The notes beneath the pieces are model-generated. The model was not told where the DNA came from. It ran no database searches and saw only the letters and a program-made list of their open reading frames with translations. From a virus (lineage: Duplodnaviria; Heunggongvirae; Uroviricota; Caudoviricetes), in IMG/VR virus record IMGVR_UViG_2778261088_000006: DNA of 27,160 nucleotides. One strand, 5' to 3'. The position numbers and the translations under genes were made by a program. Numbering within the stretch: the first letter of the stretch is position 1; each line of letters opens with the position of its first letter. Shown piece after piece: positions 311-27,160 of the stretch.

Positions 311-3196
311 ATGCCGCGTCGCGTCACTCTAACCGATCGGCAGAAAGACGCGCTGTTGCGCTTGCCGACTTCACAGACGGATTTGCTCAAGCACTATACG
401 CTGAGTGATGAAGACCTTGGGCATATCAGGCTGCGTCGGCGCGCTCACAACAGGTTCGGCTTCGCCCTGCAATTGTGTGTCCTGCGCTATCCCGGCCGGG
501 TGCTGGCTCCAGGCGAACTGATCCCTGCAGAGGTCATCGAATTTATCGGAGCGCAGCTTGGCCTGGGTGCCGACGATCTCGTAGACTATGCTGCCCGCGA
601 GGAAACACGGCACGAGCATCTTGCCGAGTTACGGGGGCTCTACGGCTTCCGCACCTTCTCCGGACGTGGTGCGAGCGAGCTGAAGGAATGGTTGTTCCGA
701 GAAGCCGAGATGGCGGTGTCGAACGAGGATATCGCCCGTCGCTTCGTAGCCGAGTGCCGACGCACCCGCACTGTCCTTCCCGCGACATCCACGATCGAGC
801 GGCTTTGTGCCGCGGCTCTCGTCGATGCCGAGCGACGCATCGAGACGAGGATCGCCAGTCGGCTGCCTATGTCGATCCGAGAACAGTTGCTGGCATTGCT
901 CGAGGAGACGGCTGATGATCGGGTGACCCGTTTTGTGTGGCTGCGCCAGTTCGAGCCTGGCTCGAACTCTTCGTCGGCCAACCGGCTGCTCGACCGGCTC
1001 GAATATCTGCAACGCATCGATCTCCCCGAGGATCTGCTTGCCGGCGTTCCTGCCCATCGGGTGACTCGTCTGCGCAGGCAGGGTGAACGGTATTATGCCG
1101 ACGGCATGCGCGATCTCCCGGAGGACAGGCGGCTTGCGATCTTGGCTGTTTGCGTCTCGGAATGGCAGGCGATGTTGGCCGACGCAGTGGTCGAAACCCA
1201 CGACCGGATCGTCGGCCGTCTCTACCGTGCTTCGGAGCGTATTTGCCATGCAAAGGTCGCAGACGAAGCGGGGGTGGTGCGTGACACCCTGAAATCCTTC
1301 GCCGAGATCGGGGGCGCCCTGGTCGATGCACAGGATGATGGCCAGCCGCTGGGCGATGTCATCGCGAGTGGGTCAGGGTGGGACGGCTTAAAAACCCTTG
1401 TTGCAATGGCAACCAGGCTGACCGCCACCATGGCCGACGATCCGCTCAATCATGTGCTCGACGGTTATCACCGCTTCCGCCGATACGCTCCACGCATGTT
1501 GCGCCTGCTCGATCTGCGAGCTGCGCCCGTTGCACTGCCGCTTCTGGAAGCGGTGACGGCCCTTCGTACCGGTTTGAACGATGCCGCGATGACCAGCTTC
1601 TTGCGGCCCAGCTCGAAATGGCATCGCCACCTTCGGGCCCAGAGGGCTGGCGACGCTCGCCTATGGGAGATCGCGGTGCTGTTCCATCTGCGCGATGCGT
1701 TCCGCTCCGGAGATGTCTGGCTTACTAGGTCCCGGCGCTATGGCGATCTGAAACACGCACTCGTTCCGGCACAATCCATCGCGGAAGGCGGTCGTCTCGC
1801 TGTGCCATTGCGGCCGGAGGAATGGCTGGCAGACCGGCAAGCTCGCCTCGACATGCGGTTGCGCGAGCTTGGCCGTGCCGCTCGCGCAGGCACGATCCCG
1901 GGCGGGTCGATTGAAAACGGCGTTCTGCATATCGAGAAACTCGAAGCCGCCGCGCCGACAGGCGCCGAAGATCTGGTGCTCGATCTCTACAAGCAGATCC
2001 CGCCCACGCGCATCACCGATCTCCTGCTGGAGGTGGATGCGGCGACCGGCTTCACCGAAGCGTTCACCCATCTGCGCACAGGAGCACCCTGCGCTGACCG
2101 GATCGGGCTAATGAACGTTATCTTGGCGGAAGGGATCAACCTCGGCTTGCGCAAAATGGCGGATGCGACAAACACCCACACCTTCTGGGAATTGATCCGC
2201 ATTGGACGGTGGCATGTCGAGGGCGAAGCCTATGACCGGGCGCTGGCCATGGTGGTCGAGGCACAGGCAGCGTTACCCATGGCCCGGTTCTGGGGCATGG
2301 GCACGTCGGCTTCGAGCGACGGACAGTTCTTCGTCGCTACAGAGCAAGGTGAGGCCATGAACCTGGTCAACGCGAAATATGGCAATACCCCGGGCCTGAA
2401 AGCCTATAGCCACGTCTCCGACCAATATGCGCCGTTCGCAACCCAGGTGATTCCTGCAACGGCAAGCGAAGCGCCTTACATCCTCGATGGCCTGCTGATG
2501 AACGATGCTGGACGCCATATCCGCGAGCAGTTCACCGACACGGGCGGCTTCACCGATCACGTCTTTGCCGCATGTGCCATTCTCGGCTACCGGTTCGCTC
2601 CGCGCATCCGCGACCTGCCATCCAAACGGCTCTACGCGTTCAATCCGTCGGCCGCCCCGGCGCACCTGCGAGCGTTGATCGGCGGAAAGGTCAACCAAGC
2701 CATGATCGAGCGCAATTGGCCCGACATCCTGCGCATCGCCGCCACCATTGCTGCCGGGACCGTCGCGCCAAGCCAGATTCTGCGGAAACTCGCCTCCTAT
2801 CCGCGGCAGAACGAGCTCGCGACAGCCCTGCGGGAAGTCGGTCGCGTCGAGCGCACCCTGTTCATGATCGACTGGATTCTGGATGCCGAACTCCAACGGC
2901 GTGCCCAGATCGGGCTCAACAAAGGCGAAGCTCATCATGCGCTGAAGCGGGCAATCAGCTTCCACCGCCGCGGTGAAATCCGCGACCGTTCCGCCGAAGG
3001 CCAGCATTACCGCATCGCCGGCATGAATCTGCTCGCCGCCATCATCATCTTCTGGAACACCATGAAGCTCGGCGAGGTCGTTGCAAACCAGAAACGCGAT
3101 GGAAAGCTGCTATCGCCCGATCTCTTGGCCCATGTTTCGCCGCTCGGATGGGAACACATCAATCTCACCGGAGAATATCGCTGGCCAAAGCCTTAG
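311..3196 (+). CDS. tnpA: Tn3-family transposase, 961 aa, apparently intact
   Basis: Uninterrupted 961-aa ORF in GC-rich DNA, N-terminus MPRRVTLTDRQKDALLRLP, size and composition typical of Tn3-family TnpA. ATG at 311 follows an AAGGA ribosome-binding site. The stop codon lies inside the terminal IR, as is usual in this family. Many opposite-strand ORFs here are GC artefacts. Confidence 0.9.
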   Translation: MPRRVTLTDRQKDALLRLPTSQTDLLKHYTLSDEDLGHIRLRRRAHNRFGFALQLCVLRYPGRVLAPGELIPAEVIEFIGAQLGLGADDLVDYAAREETRHEHLAELRGLYGFRTFSGRGASELKEWLFREAEMAVSNEDIARRFVAECRRTRTVLPATSTIERLCAAALVDAERRIETRIASRLPMSIREQLLALLEETADDRVTRFVWLRQFEPGSNSSSANRLLDRLEYLQRIDLPEDLLAGVPAHRVTRLRRQGERYYADGMRDLPEDRRLAILAVCVSEWQAMLADAVVETHDRIVGRLYRASERICHAKVADEAGVVRDTLKSFAEIGGALVDAQDDGQPLGDVIASGSGWDGLKTLVAMATRLTATMADDPLNHVLDGYHRFRRYAPRMLRLLDLRAAPVALPLLEAVTALRTGLNDAAMTSFLRPSSKWHRHLRAQRAGDARLWEIAVLFHLRDAFRSGDVWLTRSRRYGDLKHALVPAQSIAEGGRLAVPLRPEEWLADRQARLDMRLRELGRAARAGTIPGGSIENGVLHIEKLEAAAPTGAEDLVLDLYKQIPPTRITDLLLEVDAATGFTEAFTHLRTGAPCADRIGLMNVILAEGINLGLRKMADATNTHTFWELIRIGRWHVEGEAYDRALAMVVEAQAALPMARFWGMGTSASSDGQFFVATEQGEAMNLVNAKYGNTPGLKAYSHVSDQYAPFATQVIPATASEAPYILDGLLMNDAGRHIREQFTDTGGFTDHVFAACAILGYRFAPRIRDLPSKRLYAFNPSAAPAHLRALIGGKVNQAMIERNWPDILRIAATIAAGTVAPSQILRKLASYPRQNELATALREVGRVERTLFMIDWILDAELQRRAQIGLNKGEAHHALKRAISFHRRGEIRDRSAEGQHYRIAGMNLLAAIIIFWNTMKLGEVVANQKRDGKLLSPDLLAHVSPLGWEHINLTGEYRWPKP

Positions 3197-4800: not shown

Positions 4801-4829
4801 AATTTTGCCCGGTAATTCCGGGCAAAATT
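4801..4829. terminator. Perfect hairpin between convergent genes; probable bidirectional terminator
   Basis: AATTTTGCCCGG-TAATT-CCGGGCAAAATT: 12-bp perfect stem with 5-nt loop, 7 nt after the RelA/SpoT stop and immediately after the stop of the minus-strand gene at 4831. Confidence 0.45.
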
Positions 4830-5549: not shown

Positions 5550-8500
5550 TTATGCGTATTGTTGGATGACGGCCAGAACGTCCGCCACGTTGTGTTTTGT
5601 CTCGATAATCCACCAGTTACCCGGGAAATCGCTGTTCTTCGCCTTCGCTGGCAGCCAGCGAGCGCCGAATTTCGCCTTGATTGCGTCTTTCGCACGGAAA
5701 AGAACGCCTTTCATGCCTGAGGCTTCCTGAAGCCCAAATACCTCGCCAGCGGCGAATTTTGGTGCGTACATCATCTTCAGGTCGGCGGTGGATACGCGAT
5801 AATTCAGACCAAGAGACTGAGCTATGCTGGTGGCATCACCCTGTATTGATGATAACTCTTCTTGTTTCTCGTTTCTGGCGGCAATCTCTTCCTCCGTGAT
5901 GTTGCCAAGGGCCAGGTTTATCCGATCAGCGTCGGCCTGTTTCTCTTCATCGGTGCGCCCGGCAAGAACCGTGTTAATTCTCTGCAATATCTCCACATGA
6001 TTCTTGCGCATGCTGAGCAATTCCGGCGTAACCTCGTTAAGATCCACCAGCCCAAGGATGGCAAGGTCGGAAAACATTGATACCAGGTTGTAGGTCATGC
6101 GATAGCTGAGTTGACCATAGGCTGATGGCAACTGCACCGCATCCATTTTATAGGCATCCATAAATTTAGAGCCGTCGTTTACGACATCCGCAATTGCCGG
6201 TGTGATTTTTCCTGTGGTGGCGGCCTCCCTGATTGCTGTTACCCACGATTGAGTCAGCGCGGAAACTGCATGATTCAGATTGGCTTTGCGTTCTGCTGCA
6301 ATGCGCGCGCTTGCAGCGTCCATTGACTGTTTGATCTCGTCTTTATTGCTGTAAATGCCAATGGTGCCAAACTGTGCTGTGGTGATCTCATAATCTGACG
6401 CCCGGAACTCATTGGTACCGAAAATGGCATTGGTGACTTCAAGTTCAGAATCCCCGTTACGAGTAGCCCCCTGGCTTGTTTTTTCCGGCATTCTGGCGAT
6501 CGCATCCGCTATTTTCTCCTGAATTGCTTCAGGGGATAGCGTATCTCCGTATGACGCGATTACATCGCCATAATTGGAGCCAAACAGTTCAACCAGGAAT
6601 GTTTCTGCCGAACGGATCTGGCGGTTATTCCCTTCCGACATCATACCAAGCACCCATTTTGCAATTGACGACTTCAGCGCGCCGTCACGGCGATCCGGGT
6701 AAACCGCATGCTTCAGTGGGTCCGTATAGGTACCAACAAAATCGATGCTATAGCCTGACTCTGTAGTCTGAACGCCGTATGAGTCAGTGATTTTGATCAT
6801 GCCGCGCTGCTGGAAACGGTAGAAATCGTCACAGGAAATGATGTCGTTAATCCCGGCGATGGAGACGCCACCACTGATTTTCTGCATAACAGCATCTTCA
6901 TCGGGAGTTACATCCACCTGTTTATCCAGCGTCTTCACATCCCAGTTACCCGATTTGGTGCCTCTTAAGGTAAAGATGATCTCCACGTCTGCGCGCTGGC
7001 TGTCGAAGTCCAACGACTTAATGCGAACGATATCACCGGCACAATCGTAGTATTGGCCTACACGCCATGAGCGATCGCCGATAACAAGGAACTCATTCGC
7101 ATGGTTAACCAGATCAGGATCAACATCCAGAATGCCTTTATTTATTGCATCCTCCACCAGCGGGCGCAGGCGTTTGATATCCGTCGCGGCCTTCTGAGTA
7201 CGGTTCAATAATTTCTCATAGCGGGAGATGGCCTGAGAGATATTAGCCTTGCGCTGAATGGCGCTTTTCAACGACGCGCGATACTGTGCTAACAACGTAC
7301 GGTCTGTGTGATGGACGCTACCCCAGCGGGCTTTCCAGTCTGCGTTATCAGCTGCTTTGGCCATTACCGCCTGTTTGAATTTAGCTACCTCGGCGGTGGT
7401 CTTTTCAAGTTCCGCTTTGCTTCGCTTTAATTCAGCGGTAAGTACCTCCACATCCTCGCCAGCTGCGTGCTGCGCCTTGATGTAATTCTGAAGGTCGATA
7501 GTAGCCTGTTCTTTCTGGCGAGCGCGTTTCGCAGCTTTCGCCTTATCCATTTGAACCTGCATCATTGCCAGACGTTCGCCGTCATCCTTCGCGGTATACA
7601 TCTGCATTTCGATCATGTCATTGGCGTCGGCGTTCTCCATTTCCGACTTATCTGAACGGAGGATATCGGAGATCCAGCCTGCTTTACGCTTCAGCGTCTT
7701 CAATCGGTATTCATCGAAAGACCCCTTGCCGCAGTAGTAGTGAACGCGAACGCTTGCACGGTTGGAGCCAACTCGAGCACCGCGACCGTTACGCTGTGCG
7801 ATACTGGCTGGTGTCCATGGCAACGTCAGATGATGGATGTCAGTCGTTCCTCGATGCAGGTTGATACCCACCTCTGCCTTTTTGTTGCAGATGATGATCG
7901 GAGTCCGGCCCTCCTGGAAGTCGGCTGCAATCTTTTCCAGACCGCCCAACGACATTTCATTCTGCTGCGCGATATAGGCGTCATACAGAGCCATTTGCTC
8001 GTTGTATTTCGCTATCTGTGCATCTGTTGGTTCATCCGGTAACTCTTTCGGCGGTTTAACCGCTTTCAGTTTCTTACCGGTTTTACCTGCCTCGGCAACC
8101 GTCTGAGCATTCAGGATCCCCACCTTTGAAGGTTCAAGGTTAAGAGCATTGCAGATAATGCGCTTGAGCTTCTGGTGCTGCGTTTTTTCGTCCGTGAAGA
8201 TGATTTGCTTACCTTCCGGGAAAAACTCCTTCAGCGTGGCGATCAGCTTCACGTATTTGGGCGTAACGGGGTGAGTTACAGTCTGTTCGTCAATGCCAAA
8301 CTTGGCCAAGCGCTTATTCACTTCCTGCTCGAACGCTTCCGGAACCTGCAACTGAATAAACTCGCCCTTATCTATCAGGGAGTATTGCGATTGCTGCGTG
8401 ATTGAATCATCACTGTCGTCGTCTTCGCTGGTGGCTTGTTTGGGCAAACTGTCCGCCAGCTGCTGCACCGCATCGGCGTACTCCGGCAGGAAACGATAGG

Positions 8501-15114: not shown

Positions 15115-15126
15115 CCACCAAAAATA

Positions 15127-15153
15127 ACCCCGGCGGCTGCCGGGGTTCTCGTT
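15127..15153. terminator. Rho-independent terminator, probably bidirectional
   Basis: CCCCGGC-GGCT-GCCGGGG stem-loop followed by TTCTCGTT on the plus strand and preceded by TTTTTGGTGGTTATTT (a U-tract for the minus-strand transcript); lies after the pro stop at 15114. Confidence 0.6.
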
Positions 15154-18703: not shown

Positions 18704-18733
18704 AAAAATCCCGCCGATTGGCGGGATTTCTTT
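18704..18733. terminator. Bidirectional rho-independent terminator between convergent transcription units
   Basis: AAAATCCCGCC-GATT-GGCGGGATTT followed by CTTT; lies between the stop of the plus-strand 364-aa gene (18700) and the stop of the minus-strand 102-aa gene (18732). Confidence 0.6.
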
Positions 18734-22029: not shown

Positions 22030-22395
22030 TTATGCTGCCTCTTTAATGTTGGCGGCTATCCATGCCGCCGTGTGCTGTTTAACCTGGTCCAGGTCGATGT
22101 ATGTGCCAACATATTGACTCAAATCCTGCAAGGTACCGATAAATGCATCGGTGCTCTGATCGACGAATTTATCAGCCAGGAAATCAGCAACCAGTTTTGG
22201 CACACCATCATGTACCGAAGGTTGTTTTTCCTCGCCACTACTGCCGCCGGACACACCGTACCCCATCTGTTGCATGATCTGGTCAATTTCATCGCTGATA
22301 TCCAGCAACTCCATGCCACTCGCGGTAGCCGCTTTGGACATCAAAGCATCCAACTTATCGCTGAGATCCATTAACTCAATAGCTGATAGTGTCAT
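22030..22395 (-). CDS. ddrA: Small protein (121 aa), P1 DdrA-like
   Basis: ORF between darA-like and ddrB-like genes, overlapping the darA stop by 4 nt. Assigned by synteny. Confidence 0.55.
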   Translation of the reverse strand: MTLSAIELMDLSDKLDALMSKAATASGMELLDISDEIDQIMQQMGYGVSGGSSGEEKQPSVHDGVPKLVADFLADKFVDQSTDAFIGTLQDLSQYVGTYIDLDQVKQHTAAWIAANIKEAA

Positions 22396-24311
22396 GCCGC
22401 TACCCCCGCTTTCTGGATTGCTACCAGCAGATCAGCCAAGTGGCGAGCAGCGCCATTAACCAGCTCTTCGTTTTCCTCAAAACGCCCGGCAGCCTGAAGG
22501 GCTGCAATCGCTTCCCGGACATTACCCCGGGCGTTACGGATCTCCGCCATGTCAGTGCTTTGCATATCCATCACGTTATTGAGATATTCAATGGCTTTAT
22601 TAGCCTCTGCATCTGCTTCGCTAACCGTTTCATCAGGCTGTGCCGGGGCAGGTTCTGGCTGAGTAATCTCACCGACTTCGGCCTGCAATGCATTGATCAT
22701 GCTCTGCACCATTTTCTCGGTGCCAGCGCCCCCCGGAAACGCAATATTGGGGAAAGTTTTTTGAAACTGAGTTTTCAGCATTACGCGGAACTCGTCTGGT
22801 GAGCTGGTGGCCAGCTCCAGAGCTTTTTGTGCATATTTGCCAAACGGACCATTAGTAAGTGTCTTCGCCAGGAAGTCGAAAGAATCCTCGCGAGGCAATA
22901 ACTTCAGGTCGTACTCACTCATTTGCTGATCAGAAAGCGGGGTATCGTAAGTAGCAATGCCGTAGCGTGCATATTCATAATACGGGTCACCTTCATCAGG
23001 GCGCGGCAGAATTGCTTTGTTACCTTCAGGTATTGCGCCAGGGGCCGCCGGACGCATTTGCAGGGCATATCGATATGCACCTACAGAGACTTCTGGTTCA
23101 GGCGAAGAGCTACCGGTATCCTCCGCTGGTTCAGGTTCGACGTTTTCCGGTTTATGTTCTTCTGGTTGGACCAGGTATTCCGATACATTACCCGCTTTAT
23201 AGGCTTTAAACAGCTTGCCGATCGCATCTGCCATGTCCACACCCTGTATGGATTTAGCCTTGATCATGTACACGCTGCCATCCGAATCGGTTAACTGGAT
23301 ATACCCTTCGCCGTCCTCAATGAATTGCTTCATTGATGCACCATTACTGAGCGTCACTTCCCCGTTCATATGCATACGATTTTTGATACTGGCAAGGCGA
23401 TCCGTCATCGCGCGAGAGTGTCCACCAGTCATCCCCGCAGGAGCAATGGTATCGCGCCCACCAGTGCGATTGAGCTGATCAATCTCCGTCTGCAAACGCT
23501 CATTCTCTTCATAAAGAGAATCCGCTTCCGATGCAACAGCGTTAATTTTCTGCTCCAGATCTACCTTCTGCCCTTCTACCGCTGCCACCTGATCCACGAG
23601 GTCGCTCATGGCATCCTCTTTCTGGTCACTGTCAGCCTGTAGTTGGGTTATTTCATCAACAAGGGCTTTTTTCTTCTTCTGCGCACGCTGAAATTTTGCC
23701 GAGTTTTTCTCTGCAAGGTTGGCAAGTTTCATGGTGACCTGCGCCAGCGTCATATCACGTCCACTCATCGGAGCAACGGTGTGAGTAACGTCTTTTTTAT
23801 TCAGTAAGAACTGGAAAGCAACCAGCGTATCGCTATTGGTGATCCGGTTTTCCGCTGTCGGGCTATGAAACAGAATGCTGATAGTCTGACCATCACTGAG
23901 CGGAATAATGGCTGGCAGGACCGGCAGCCCGTTAACGTTACGTGCCCGGCCAATTTCAGCACCGCCGATCGCGCGCGCGCCGCTCTGGGCCACATCCCCC
24001 GTTTTATCACTCCCCGCAGAGATTCCGGTACCATTCAGCTTCTGGTTCAATGCCCGGACAAATGCCTGCATGGTCCGGTGTAACTGCAAACGAGTAGAAC
24101 TAATCGCCTCCAGTAAATCCGTAGCACACCAGTGGATCGGCGTGTCATAGAAGAACGTAGCCTCGATTTCCTCCAGGGTGTTGGATTCCGTCATCAGATA
24201 GCGGTCCTCACCGGCCATTAATGCGCGATATTCATCATCAGTCACTGGCGGGGGAAGCACGTCAAGCCCAGGCTTGATCGTCACCCCTTTATTGATATTG
24301 AACTGTTCCAT
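22392..24311 (-). CDS. darA: Virion-associated antirestriction / head protein (639 aa), P1 DarA-like
   Basis: 639-aa ORF with a central coiled-coil segment, flanked by lysis genes and hdf upstream and ddrA/ddrB downstream, matching the P1 darA operon as I recall it. Confidence 0.75.
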   Translation of the reverse strand: MEQFNINKGVTIKPGLDVLPPPVTDDEYRALMAGEDRYLMTESNTLEEIEATFFYDTPIHWCATDLLEAISSTRLQLHRTMQAFVRALNQKLNGTGISAGSDKTGDVAQSGARAIGGAEIGRARNVNGLPVLPAIIPLSDGQTISILFHSPTAENRITNSDTLVAFQFLLNKKDVTHTVAPMSGRDMTLAQVTMKLANLAEKNSAKFQRAQKKKKALVDEITQLQADSDQKEDAMSDLVDQVAAVEGQKVDLEQKINAVASEADSLYEENERLQTEIDQLNRTGGRDTIAPAGMTGGHSRAMTDRLASIKNRMHMNGEVTLSNGASMKQFIEDGEGYIQLTDSDGSVYMIKAKSIQGVDMADAIGKLFKAYKAGNVSEYLVQPEEHKPENVEPEPAEDTGSSSPEPEVSVGAYRYALQMRPAAPGAIPEGNKAILPRPDEGDPYYEYARYGIATYDTPLSDQQMSEYDLKLLPREDSFDFLAKTLTNGPFGKYAQKALELATSSPDEFRVMLKTQFQKTFPNIAFPGGAGTEKMVQSMINALQAEVGEITQPEPAPAQPDETVSEADAEANKAIEYLNNVMDMQSTDMAEIRNARGNVREAIAALQAAGRFEENEELVNGAARHLADLLVAIQKAGVAA

Positions 24312-24312
24312 G

Positions 24313-24924
24313 TTAATTTCCTGCTTTCAGTTGCTTAAGACGGCGTTTGAGTTCGCCATTTCGGGCCTTTTCGTTATTGAGTCGGCCTGTCTCCTTATCC
24401 AGCTTCGCCCGCAAATCAGTGATCTGCTGTTGATTGAAAGACACCGAGTTCTGCGCTGATTTATAAGCGGCAACCACCTGAGCATTCCGCTGTTTTGCCT
24501 CTTGCAGGCGCTGAAAGTTGGATTTTACTGCCGGTTTCTTGTCTACCGGATTGGCAACACGTTTCGCTTTGGCGATCAGTGATTTCTGGAATTTTGCGGA
24601 GTTTTTGCGGGCCGCTTGCCCCATGACGGTACCAAGCGTCTTGATATCCGGCGACTGAGCGTTAGGAATAGCTTTTCCATTCAGCCTCACAGACGATATA
24701 TCGCCAGTATCGTTTACCTGTATGGCAAGAATTTGTCCGTCGTTAAGAACCAGCTTTGCGGTTTTAACTTTAACGCCATCTTTCGTTGTTGCGCGGTTGC
24801 TGGAGTCAACCTCAATTACCGTAACACCGGTTTTATTGATCGCCGCGATAAGGGATTTCAGCCCCTTTTCATTAACCTGGTCAAAATCGACCGTTGCATA
24901 CTTATTTTTCGTCATCTGACACAT
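24313..24924 (-). CDS. hdf: Protein immediately upstream of darA (203 aa), P1 Hdf-like
   Basis: Stop lies 1 nt before the darA start. Lys-rich with a C-terminal coiled coil. Assigned by synteny. Confidence 0.6.
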   Translation of the reverse strand: MCQMTKNKYATVDFDQVNEKGLKSLIAAINKTGVTVIEVDSSNRATTKDGVKVKTAKLVLNDGQILAIQVNDTGDISSVRLNGKAIPNAQSPDIKTLGTVMGQAARKNSAKFQKSLIAKAKRVANPVDKKPAVKSNFQRLQEAKQRNAQVVAAYKSAQNSVSFNQQQITDLRAKLDKETGRLNNEKARNGELKRRLKQLKAGN

Positions 24925-25345
24925 CCTGTGCGAGATTTATTACGTAACTTCTGCGGATTTGCTGAGTAACAGGGAAAATCCGATACAACGGGTTAATGAA
25001 CGAGTCGCCATGCGTAACCATGACGTTGAAATGCCACAGTCGCTCTCCTTTACCCATATATTCAGTGGGTATGTACAACCATTCACTGTTTTCGCCCTGT
25101 TCAGCCGACGTCAAACAACGTTGTTCGCCTTCAATCACTGTCGTCGGCTTCTGAACATCGCGGATCCAATATCTGACCGTTGCGCCGCGCAAAAACGGGA
25201 ATTTAGACCGGTATTTGAACGGCACCCGGATGAAACCCGGTTTAATTTCCACATCACCAAGTTCTAAATGCGTGATGTCCTTGCGTTTTAGCAAATAGCG
25301 ATCGGCTAAGGCTAACGCAAGAACGCATACACCCCAGCCAATCAT
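24902..25345 (-). CDS. lydB: Putative antiholin (147 aa), P1 LydB-like
   Basis: Overlaps the upstream holin-like gene by 4 nt; N-terminal hydrophobic segment. Assigned by synteny with P1 lydA-lydB. Confidence 0.55.
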   Translation of the reverse strand: MIGWGVCVLALALADRYLLKRKDITHLELGDVEIKPGFIRVPFKYRSKFPFLRGATVRYWIRDVQKPTTVIEGEQRCLTSAEQGENSEWLYIPTEYMGKGERLWHFNVMVTHGDSFINPLYRIFPVTQQIRRSYVINLAQDVSDDEK

Positions 25346-25671
25346 TTCCCGCCTCCCTTTTTCACCAAACTTGTAAGAACATTCAGAATGCTATCGATAT
25401 TCACTCGTTTCATCCCTGAAATCACCTCATGACCGTTATTGCTGGCTATCGTTACCATTAAGTACGTAATTGATAACTCCCAGCCCTCGTGTTGCCCCAA
25501 TAGGTACGCCACCGCGCCAGCTGTCACTGCAACAAAGATCTCCGTAACCAATCCCAACAAATTGCCAGACTGGCGACCGTCTCGGACATCCATCAGGAAC
25601 GTGCCTATCCCACCAATTACTGAAAGCAGGAGCGCAATAGCAACTGGAGCTAATTCCTGTGTGTCAAGCAC
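25342..25671 (-). CDS. lydA: Putative holin (109 aa), P1 LydA-like
   Basis: GTG start with AGGAGG ribosome-binding site 6 nt upstream; two or three predicted transmembrane segments (VAIALLLSVIGGIGTFLM, LGLVTEIFVAVTAGAVAYLL); charged C-terminus. Confidence 0.6.
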   Translation of the reverse strand: MLDTQELAPVAIALLLSVIGGIGTFLMDVRDGRQSGNLLGLVTEIFVAVTAGAVAYLLGQHEGWELSITYLMVTIASNNGHEVISGMKRVNIDSILNVLTSLVKKGGGK

Positions 25672-25745
25672 AAGTTCCCTCCTACGTTGTCAGGAGGTAA
25701 TGGTATGCAAAGTAACTTCTCAACCGGTTATGTTGCATAAGAGAC

Positions 25746-26009
25746 TTACCTATTCAACCGACTTTTGGAACCTTCAATAATAAGCCTGCTATTGGCGCTG
25801 AAAATAAGAACCATGCAGCTCTGAAGGCTTTCATTCATGTCCTTATATTCCGCGAGATACATGCCAATAAAGCCAGCAAGTACGGCGGAAATACATTCGG
25901 CCAGCAATTTCTTGCATGAAGACTCGTAACGGTTTTCACATAGCCCACTCAAATACGAATACACCCCACCAAGAAGGGATAACATCACGATATGTACATA
26001 AAATGTCAT
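25746..26009 (-). CDS. Small membrane protein (87 aa) upstream of the holin gene
   Basis: ATG at 26007-26009; hydrophobic segments (VHIVMLSLLGGVYSYL, AVLAGFIGMYLA). Possibly a further lysis-control gene; not assigned. Confidence 0.45.
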   Translation of the reverse strand: MTFYVHIVMLSLLGGVYSYLSGLCENRYESSCKKLLAECISAVLAGFIGMYLAEYKDMNESLQSCMVLIFSANSRLIIEGSKSRLNR

Positions 26010-26136
26010 TTTTTACCTATACAACAGTAAGTTGAACAACATTTGAGAACGGTATGCACTTTGTGATTTCCACACACACTGGTTTTGTTAATTAAAACCT
26101 GTAGCTTGCAATAAATAACGATAGTGGGCAGAAAAT

Positions 26137-26322
26137 ATGCTAATAGGCTATGTACGCATATAGACAAATGAACAAAACACAGCTATGCAGTGAAAAGCAC
26201 TTGAAAGCGCAGGATGTGAGCTAATTTTTGCGAATAAGGCGAGCAGCAAAAAAGCTGGGCACCCTGGGTTAAAAAAGGTTCTGCGTATGCTTTCCAGAGG
26301 TGATACCCTAGTCTCGGACTAG
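26137..26322 (+). pseudogene. Decayed 5' fragment of a Hin/Gin/Cin-type DNA invertase gene with in-frame stops
   Basis: Translation MLIGYVRI-stop-TNEQNTAMQ-stop-KALESAGCELIFANKASSKKAGHPGLKKVLRMLSRGDTLVSD-stop aligns with the cin product in this window (MQIGYIRVSTNDQNTDLQRNALNCAGCELIFEDKISGTKSARPGLKKLLRTLSEGDTLV). Stops at 26161 and 26188; similarity ends near 26313. Confidence 0.55.
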
Positions 26323-26444
26323 GGACAACATTTCGAGAACAGTTTTCATTAGCGGTCAGCAGGCGCTAGATACATCGAATTGATGTGCCGCGCGATAAAT
26401 GTACCTATTCTATCAAGATAAATTACACCGACGCGGCATTAGAA

Positions 26445-27017
26445 TTACAGCTCAGATTGAGTTTGGCGCTTCTCTACAGGATGATAACGATAAATCGTCG
26501 ATACACCGATATCGTAAATAATTGCCAACTGTTTCCTGCTGTAGCCATTTTCGATCAACCTCGCTATTTGCTCATGTTGTTCTTTTGTCAACTTCGGGCG
26601 ACGTCCGCCAATGCGTCCCTGTTCGCGTGCAGCTGCCAGTCCGGCCAGTGTTCTCTCAACAATTAATTCACGTTCCATTTCTGCTAAAGCACCCATGACA
26701 TGAAAAAAGAAACGCCCCATGGGTGTTGATGTGTCAATACTGTCTGTCAGACTACGGAAATTAACACCTTTTTCCCGCAACTCCTCTATAAGCGTGATAA
26801 GGTGTTTCATACTTCTGCCAAGCCTATCCAGCTTCCAGACAACCAGCGTATCTCCTTCTGATAACGTTCTGAGCAGCTTTTTCAAGCCTGGTCTGGCTGA
26901 CTTTGTTCCGCTTATTTTATCTTCAAAAATCAGTTCACATCCTGCGCAGTTCAGTGCATTTCTTTGTAAATCTGTGTTTTGGTCATTTGTTGACACACGA
27001 ATGTAGCCAATTTGCAT
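26445..27017 (-). CDS. cin: Site-specific DNA invertase (serine recombinase), P1 Cin-like
   Basis: Translation from the ATG at 27017 begins MQIGYIRVSTNDQNTDLQRNAL... with the Hin/Gin/Cin catalytic motif, the conserved LVVWKLDRLGRS and a C-terminal helix-turn-helix region (GYSRKQLAIIYDIGVSTIYRY). The ORF track starts 9 nt earlier at a TTG. A cix-like site and tail-fibre coding sequence follow. Confidence 0.9.
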   Translation of the reverse strand: MQIGYIRVSTNDQNTDLQRNALNCAGCELIFEDKISGTKSARPGLKKLLRTLSEGDTLVVWKLDRLGRSMKHLITLIEELREKGVNFRSLTDSIDTSTPMGRFFFHVMGALAEMERELIVERTLAGLAAAREQGRIGGRRPKLTKEQHEQIARLIENGYSRKQLAIIYDIGVSTIYRYHPVEKRQTQSEL

Positions 27018-27069
27018 GAAAAACAACCTCTTTGTTTAGTTAAAAATACATCGTTGGTATAGGTAGGGA

Positions 27070-27097
27070 TTAAGACTAAAACGTTGGTTTAGGGGAA
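27070..27097. promoter_or_regulatory. cix-like inversion crossover site
   Basis: TTAAGACTAAAACGTTGGTTTAGGGGAA: imperfect dyad with half-sites resembling hix/gix (TTATCAAAAACC), about 50 bp from the cin start. Exact boundaries uncertain. Confidence 0.35.
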
Positions 27098-27160
27098 GGC
27101 TCGGCGCTGCCCGTTGGTGTGCCTGTTCCGTGGCCCTCCGCCACACCACCAACGGGGTGG
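27092..27160 (+). CDS. Start of a tail-fibre variable segment inside the invertible region (partial; continues beyond window end)
   Basis: Open frame GEGSALPVGVPVPWPSATPPTGW beginning at the cix-like site; a PxPWP...P.GW stretch is, as I recall, conserved at the constant/variable junction of Mu/P1/P2-type tail fibres. Confidence 0.3.

Follow-up and report, generated by a model that had tools for sequence, protein, structure and literature searches.

The best described relatives of the locus studied here are the Cin system of phage P1 and its kin and the Min system of plasmid p15B. In P1, P7 and D6, an intact cin gene occupies the corresponding position beside the holin genes, with strand and frame unchanged; in P1 it has 186 codons. 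Din-family serine invertases use a catalytic serine near residue 9-10 (Ser9), and their Fis-dependent recombinational enhancer (sis) contains two Fis-binding sites at a fixed spacing of about 48 bp. The enhancers of Hin, Gin and Cin work in either orientation and at a distance. For p15B, the papers of Iida, Sandmeier and Arber from 1990-1992 reportedly described the Min region as a Cin-like system substituted by Pin-related DNA. The GenBank record of P1 states that its positions 31570-31832 are "89 pct identical (1 gap)" to nucleotides 7147-7408 of p15B, and it puts this p15B segment between the min enhancer (6463-6533) and lydC (7483-7638). We analysed a stretch of 27,160 nucleotides of a tailed-phage genome (the window), in which the spacing of these elements is the same. 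The coordinates, identity and gap count of the match between the window and P1 equal those of the p15B note in the P1 record, a comparison made through the P1 annotation. Like p15B of Escherichia coli 15T- (GenBank X62121), the window has the order lydA, lydC, cin-like stub, min and, going by the P1 annotation, p15B also shares the 89%, one-gap similarity to P1 31570-31832 and an equal distance from the stub to the min enhancer. There is no substantive difference between the two. The relic described below is real, ordinary and already on record for p15B; outside the original p15B papers, a full-text literature search returned nothing relevant on a cin pseudogene or a truncated cin.

Sequence matches place the window in a large group of P1-like plasmid prophages. 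Over 25700-27160 it is 100% identical to the E. coli plasmid NZ_OP242276.1 and 98.8% identical in nucleotides to pJIE250-3, and phage vB_EcoM-813R1 is about 99% identical to it over 25950-26460. The invertase gene of pJIE250-3 runs opposite to P1 cin, and its product is 98.5% identical in amino acids to p15B Min (PMC6906374); on this identity and the 98.8% nucleotide match, we classify the window as a p15B-like P1 plasmid prophage, i.e. a modern p15B-type element. Its right end encodes darA, hdf, lydB, lydA and lydC on the minus strand (22392-26009), and lydC is followed by the cin-like fragment, an intact invertase gene (26445-27017, minus strand) and a crossover-like site. The interval between lydC and the fragment (26010-26136, plus strand) aligns to P1 31533-31659 and corresponds to the former lydC-cin intergenic region with the cin promoter region; its similarity to P1 is clear from about 26050. 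The upstream region of lydC, a gene of the other strand, must lie in this interval too.

The fragment itself, hereafter psi-cin (26137-26313, plus strand), corresponds to codons 1-59 of a P1-type cin, inactivated and truncated. Aligned without gaps and in the same frame, 157 of its 177 nucleotides (88.7%) are identical to P1 cin and 118 (66.7%) to the intact neighbouring invertase gene. The similarity to P1 cin is far beyond chance, since the megablast match of the region to P1 has E = 3e-90; this match runs from about 87 bp upstream of the ATG to codon 59 (P1 31570-31836, 89.5% identity, one gap). In the codon alignment to P1 cin, a TAG stands in place of the Ser9 codon (26161-26163; TCA in P1) and a TGA in place of Arg19 (26191-26193; CGA in P1). 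The translation of 26137-26322 reads MLIGYVRI*TNEQNTAMQ*KALESAGCELIFANKASSKKAGHPGLKKVLRMLSRGDTLVSD*, its third in-frame stop being codon 62 (TAG, 26320-26322). Similarity to invertase genes stops at 26313, leaving 59 codons with two thirds of the gene gone. When the stops are masked, the peptide matches the Pfam Resolvase profile (PF00239, E = 2.8e-9) at positions 2-68 of 145 and shows no C-terminal HTH_7 domain, whereas the neighbouring gene has Resolvase and HTH_7. No functional invertase of the Din family is encoded here: there is no uninterrupted frame of about 185-190 codons, the catalytic serine is lost and the domains are incomplete. Compared with the intact cin of P1, P7 and D6, the fragment shares the position beside the holin genes, the strand, the frame, a recognisable promoter region and the enhancer stretch; it differs in ending at codon 59, in its two nonsense codons (one of them at the catalytic serine) and in lacking cixL and the C segment downstream. 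Because psi-cin sits in the slot and orientation of P1 cin beside lydC, is much closer to P1 cin than to its neighbour and has P1-like DNA upstream, we regard it as a true cin relic, the dead front end of a resident P1-type cin.

These results also bear on a preliminary description of this DNA, whose interpretation they support in part. The invertase fragment with in-frame TAG and TGA codons and with homology ending at a palindrome was correctly recognised; its homology was given as about 55 codons, and the homology stands although the length is 59. The intact gene of P1, P7 and D6 is in the same frame, not a different one, which upholds the status of psi-cin as a pseudogene. The labels, however, had been reversed: the intact gene was named cin, while it is the fragment that matches P1 cin and the intact gene that is of Min/Pin type. 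A scar of a duplicated or exchanged module had been suggested, of which exchange is retained and duplication is not. Two invertase-like sequences 131 bp apart and in inverted orientation could indeed be read as a gene and its decayed duplicate, or as one system and the remnant of a co-existing second inversion system, the latter also raised at the time. We find this scarcely credible given the far greater identity of the fragment to P1 cin than to its neighbour, the P1-like upstream region, the exact cin slot, and the lack of a second set of crossover sites associated with the fragment. In the slot beside lydC, psi-cin is what is left of the resident system that was replaced.

Very probably, then, psi-cin is a non-functional relic of the resident cin, a scar of cassette replacement without present function. 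The homology, orthologous position, truncation, stop codons, degraded signals and cassette boundary can all be read directly, and from them we infer an order of events. The ancestral P1-like plasmid prophage would have had the arrangement of P1, P7 and D6, i.e. lydC, cin, the C segment and tail-fibre gene S. The 3' part of cin and the invertible tail-fibre segment would then have been replaced by a foreign cassette that brought a multi-segment tail-fibre region and its own min, which faces the opposite way. The left-hand join would have come to lie within cin, so that the old promoter region and codons 1-59 remained. The remnant would later have decayed by the two nonsense codons, missense changes and a weakening of its promoter and ribosome-binding signals, and its persistence would be due to a young lineage in which nothing removes it.

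The decay is visible in the coding sequence and in the signals around it. Relative to P1 cin there are 20 substitutions in psi-cin, 9 at codon positions 1-2 and 11 at position 3, causing 8 missense and 2 nonsense changes. Of the promoter elements annotated in P1, the -10 hexamer of P1cin has gone from TAAAAT to TAAAAC and that of P2cin from TATCAT to CAACAT; the Shine-Dalgarno GAG of the cin ribosome-binding site reads GGG, and a candidate promoter hexamer TATAAA reads AATAAA. A C1 operator annotated upstream of cin in P7 was set aside, as the upstream region of P7 is not homologous to that of the window. The promoter region nevertheless retains about 93% identity to P1, and stub and min converge at a distance of 131 bp. 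Transcription from the old cin promoter might thus be imagined to cross the stub and the palindrome and to enter min from its 3' end, damping min and keeping inversion rare. Such an antisense role seems to us very unlikely: both -10 hexamers and the candidate TATAAA have lost key bases, a promoter scan detected no sigma-70-like site on the plus strand, and no Rfam family matched 25700-27160 at E <= 1. Nor is there any excess of conservation. Among 11 distinct p15B-type sequences, the density of variable sites is 2.3% in psi-cin, 1.9% in lydC, 3.1% in the intergenic region and 1.7% in the spacer that follows the stub; psi-cin is as variable as its flanking DNA.

A similar question arises for the relic of the cin recombinational enhancer (26155-26226, plus strand), which maps to the "enhancer" of P1 at 31678-31749 with 62 of 72 positions identical. 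The stub could in principle have been kept as a second cis-acting enhancer (sis), binding Fis and stimulating the inversion of tail-fibre segments by Min. The stretch is free of indels, so that the spacing of its Fis sites is kept, the Fis-like site centred at nucleotide 78 of the gene (GCGCAGGATGTGAGC) is unchanged, and every stub found in relatives retains the enhancer stretch; an intact site at preserved spacing is also a point against reading psi-cin as a mere relic. The other Fis-like site (nucleotides 22-36), however, has changed from GTATCAACAAATGAA to ATATAGACAAATGAA, with the loss of the conserved outer G and two further bases, and the stretch has the highest substitution density of the stub (10/72 nucleotides, 13.9%, versus 10/105, 9.5%, in the remaining coding nucleotides). 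Moreover, min has an enhancer-like stretch of its own in which both Fis-like sites are intact (GTGTCAACAAATGAC and GCGCAGGATGTGAAC). The retention of the stretch in relatives is not informative, since four independent, uniformly distributed breakpoints would all lie beyond codon 30 with a probability of about 0.5. We accordingly see little prospect that the stub acts as an enhancer for Min. With mutations in the -10 hexamers and the ribosome-binding site, the enhancer the most substituted part and polymorphism equal to that of the flanks, nothing in the sequence supports a regulatory role for the stub, and the earlier suggestion of a retained regulatory sequence is not borne out.

The fragment ends in the palindrome CCCTAGTC-TCG-GACTAGGG (26306-26324), which is present exactly as first described. 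Its left arm is made of cin codons 57-59, the last base of the arm being the last position of invertase similarity, and its right arm, which contains the third in-frame stop, is non-cin DNA. P1 and other relatives read CCCTGGTC at the left arm: the position is CC(C/T)TGGTC in P1, the D6-like plasmids, SJ46 and E. fergusonii, and it is the A at 26310, peculiar to the p15B type, that perfects the pairing. The right arm is polymorphic at 26318 (A/G), giving an imperfect stem GGCTAGGG in 5 of 17 related loci, and in the D6-like relatives the corresponding place reads AATTAAGA and there is no palindrome. Perfect palindromes with 8-bp stems and loops of at most 6 nt are not rare in the window (about nine distinct ones, versus 2.6 expected in shuffles), so the notable point is the coincidence of this one with the junction and not its existence. 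Perfect palindromes with stems of at least 8 bp lie, e.g., at 948-968, 4805-4825, 15126-15147 and 18707-18728; several are GC-rich, and these may be terminators of dar and other operons.

Could the palindrome at the junction be functional, as a stabiliser or terminator at the 3' end of the min mRNA or as a protein-binding site, with the stub kept as the supplier of its left arm? A stable RNA hairpin is predicted on either strand (-13.5 to -15.8 kcal/mol; z about -3.3), and it is a lineage-specific G-to-A change that perfects the pairing. We nonetheless judge this explanation very unlikely. There is a stem but no T-run directly after it, as an intrinsic (Rho-independent) terminator would have, no U-tract adjoins it on either strand, and the terminator scan made no call. 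The polymorphic right arm leaves the stem imperfect in those 5 of the 17 related loci, the palindrome is absent from the equivalent place in D6-like relatives that carry the same cassette, and a stronger structure (-21.4 kcal/mol) lies just 3' of min, in the inverted repeat at 26381-26444. The palindrome would rather be a by-product of the formation of the junction than a functional site. The present junction at codon 59 most likely arose by a secondary deletion within a longer stub, after which a template switch would perhaps have corrected the near-palindrome, with a templated G-to-A change in the left arm. Two other origins were considered and rejected. The action of Cin or Min at a quasi-crossover site was dropped as cin codon 59 has, on a simple reading of the letters, no core of the AAACC..GGTTT type, and the opening of a hairpin, in the manner of P nucleotides, does not fit the 3-nt non-symmetric loop.

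Between psi-cin and the incoming cassette lies a spacer of 67 bp (26314-26380) that occurs in P1-family plasmids only, namely those of the p15B type and, at about 80% identity, the D6-like ones. A distant BLAST search of the spacer against phages matched only two near-identical P1-like phages. Its derivation from decayed cin, min or other DNA of the window was rejected, as local alignments were no better than those of shuffled sequences; the same result led us to drop matches to cin codons 68-86 that had been seen by eye and prompted by SJ46. One part of the spacer, at 26325-26348 (plus strand), is an imperfect direct repeat of 26036-26058 (20/24 positions, one indel; z = 4.8, with 1 of 2000 shuffles scoring as high). 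The repeat has the sequence ACAACATTT[C]GAGAAC.GT.T.CA, and its copies bracket psi-cin, which suggests that part of the lydC-cin intergenic region now exists in two copies. If two related plasmids had crossed over unequally or illegitimately, such a doubling would result. The spacer and the bracketing repeat are not explained by a simple one-step replacement, and to this extent they speak against the relic reading in its plainest form. The spacer of the D6-like plasmids also aligns, weakly, with the lydC-cin intergenic region of the window (z = 3.0).

The relic is widespread. A synthetic query from which the stub had been deleted matched 147 p15B-type plasmids in PLSDB at a query coverage of at least 80%. 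We infer that at least 147 PLSDB plasmids carry the relic, as an insert of 288 bp was present in each of the approximately 52 matches listed. With this query, we found no relative that has min and lacks the stub, all sampled matches being in two pieces across the extra 288 bp. Such constancy is an argument against a functionless relic, and formally it leaves room for selection to retain the stub.

Related stubs are found in other lineages. In the D6-like plasmids pKOr024_2 and pEc-050-T20-MAC_3, the stub has about 103 codons and a frameshift caused by a 2-bp deletion, and it is followed by the homologous spacer and by a min that is 99% identical. The stub of phage SJ46 has about 80 or more codons and lies beside a convergent pin-type gene. 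In E. fergusonii pRHB41-C23_2 about 77 codons remain, the fifth of them a TAA; the DNA beside this stub is unrelated and has no invertase gene. Each lineage's stub resembles the cin of its own backbone most closely, and breakpoints and inactivating lesions differ. As in the window, all these stubs are truncated 5' parts of the cin of the backbone beside a replaced tail-fibre region, and three of the four from SJ46, pKOr024_2, pEc-050-T20-MAC_3 and pRHB41-C23_2 adjoin a convergent invertase of the pin/min type; the terminal palindrome is confined to the p15B type. When tail-fibre cassettes are replaced, the left seam thus falls repeatedly inside cin, as would be expected: cin becomes dispensable, but the DNA upstream of lydC, immediately to the left, is still needed. 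The D6-like stub is about 20% diverged and stands beside a homologous spacer; if both lineages go back to a single event, the stub has survived for long, which counts against the relic reading. The stub is a useful marker and not a discovery: it shows that host range in P1-family plasmid prophages changes when whole cassettes of tail-fibre and invertase genes are swapped. In the related loci L014, L017, L105 and L015, the stubs are located at 2188-2500, 2503-2815, 1299-1650 and 2939-3175, respectively. PGAP/RefSeq labels the D6-like stub as an incomplete, frameshifted recombinase pseudogene, and the record of vB_EcoM-813R1 leaves its cin stub without annotation.

The intact gene convergent with psi-cin (26445-27017, minus strand) encodes a DNA invertase of 190 aa with full-length Pfam Resolvase and HTH_7 domains. 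It is 100% identical to genes of many p15B-like plasmids and 72% identical in nucleotides to P1 cin over the first 177 nt, and by its sequence we assign it to the Min/Pin type and not to Cin; the intact invertase of p15B-type elements should be annotated accordingly. The preliminary description had seen in the stub and the intact gene a potential substrate for homologous inversion. They do lie in inverted orientation, but their longest exact match is 13 bp (GCGCAGGATGTGA) at the overall identity of 66.7% given above, and RecA of E. coli needs 20-30 bp. Inversion by homologous recombination between them is thus unlikely. Upstream of min, we read from the sequence a candidate crossover site of the mix/cix type, AAGACTAAAACG-TT-GGTTTAGGGGAA (27072-27097), which resembles the 12-2-12 layout of Din crossover sites. 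The DNA just inside this site (27079-27160) recurs three to four times at 88-96% identity in L028 and L030, as repeated borders of a multi-segment invertible region would. Among p15B-type loci (L004, L012, L026 and L027), min is mosaic, with 92-100% identity and 8% variable positions, while the stub and spacer are 98-100% identical; this suggests a frequent exchange of min sequence with other pin/min genes, e.g. those of chromosomal prophages. In the GenBank record of vB_EcoM-813R1, the sequenced phage nearest to the window (ON470617.2; L002, 6496-7067), the min-type invertase is split into two CDS, "Hin1" and "Hin2", which reflects either a frameshift of the isolate or an error of sequencing or annotation.

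The outer boundary of the Min cassette points to where the cassette may have come from. The 64 bp at 26381-26444 start with 5'-TG, contain two repeats of the type GATAAAT(G/T)TAC inside an inverted repeat, and look like the terminal right end of a Mu-like transposable phage. The region 26381-27160 is 87-88% identical to the ends of chromosomal Mu-like prophages and viral contigs with invertases of the pin/min type. The similarity begins exactly at TGATG in all contexts, including five outside the P1 family, and the flanks differ: gsk, a truncated wzz(fepE), three viral contigs and the P1-family plasmids. Two E. coli chromosomes have the element at the junction between prophage and host, beside gsk or inside the truncated wzz(fepE). 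The prophage between aes and gsk encodes Mor, Gam, an ExeA/MuB-like ATPase and a protein with a DDE "integrase catalytic domain" (a DDE transposase), and its aes-side end, TGAGATAAATGACA, matches TGAGATAAATTACA of the right end in inverted orientation. The sequence at 26381-26444 thus combines a junction position with unrelated flanks, the terminal 5'-TG, and an association with transposition genes and related repeats at the far end. With attR of Mu and the ends of Mu-like prophages it shares the 5'-TG and repeated motifs of the CGATAAAT type (R1 and R2 in Mu), and, like gin of Mu, the invertase of the window lies just inside the end and in the same orientation relative to the tail-fibre gene. 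There are also differences: the terminal 21 bp are identical to the R1 site of Mu attR at only 15 of 21 positions without gaps (local alignment z = 3.3, with 1.3% of shuffles as high), and com/mom is missing between the invertase gene and the terminus. As found in the plasmid, this terminus is an orphan, with no transposase genes known nearby, and the other boundary of the cassette lies outside the window.

The Min cassette has the look of a Mu-like right arm whose last 64 bp are still in place. We give an even chance to the proposition that the Min cassette was grafted from the right arm of a Mu-like phage, and that psi-cin, the doubled intergenic piece and the palindromic junction are scars of this graft. 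The phage DNA would have been inserted, or illegitimately joined, near cin, with its terminal transposase-binding end kept intact 64 bp beyond min. Recombination between homologous tail-fibre genes would then have deleted the rest of the phage together with the 3' end of cin and the C segment. The Mu-like end offers a concrete and testable route for the swapping of cassettes and, if the graft is real, transposases of Mu-like prophages resident in the same cell might still recognise the orphan end. In the viral contig L030 (3652-3908), a Mu-like right end abuts the truncated 3' part of a second min-like gene, 88% identical to 26474-26730 of the window, so there one transposable phage end lies inside the invertase gene of another element.
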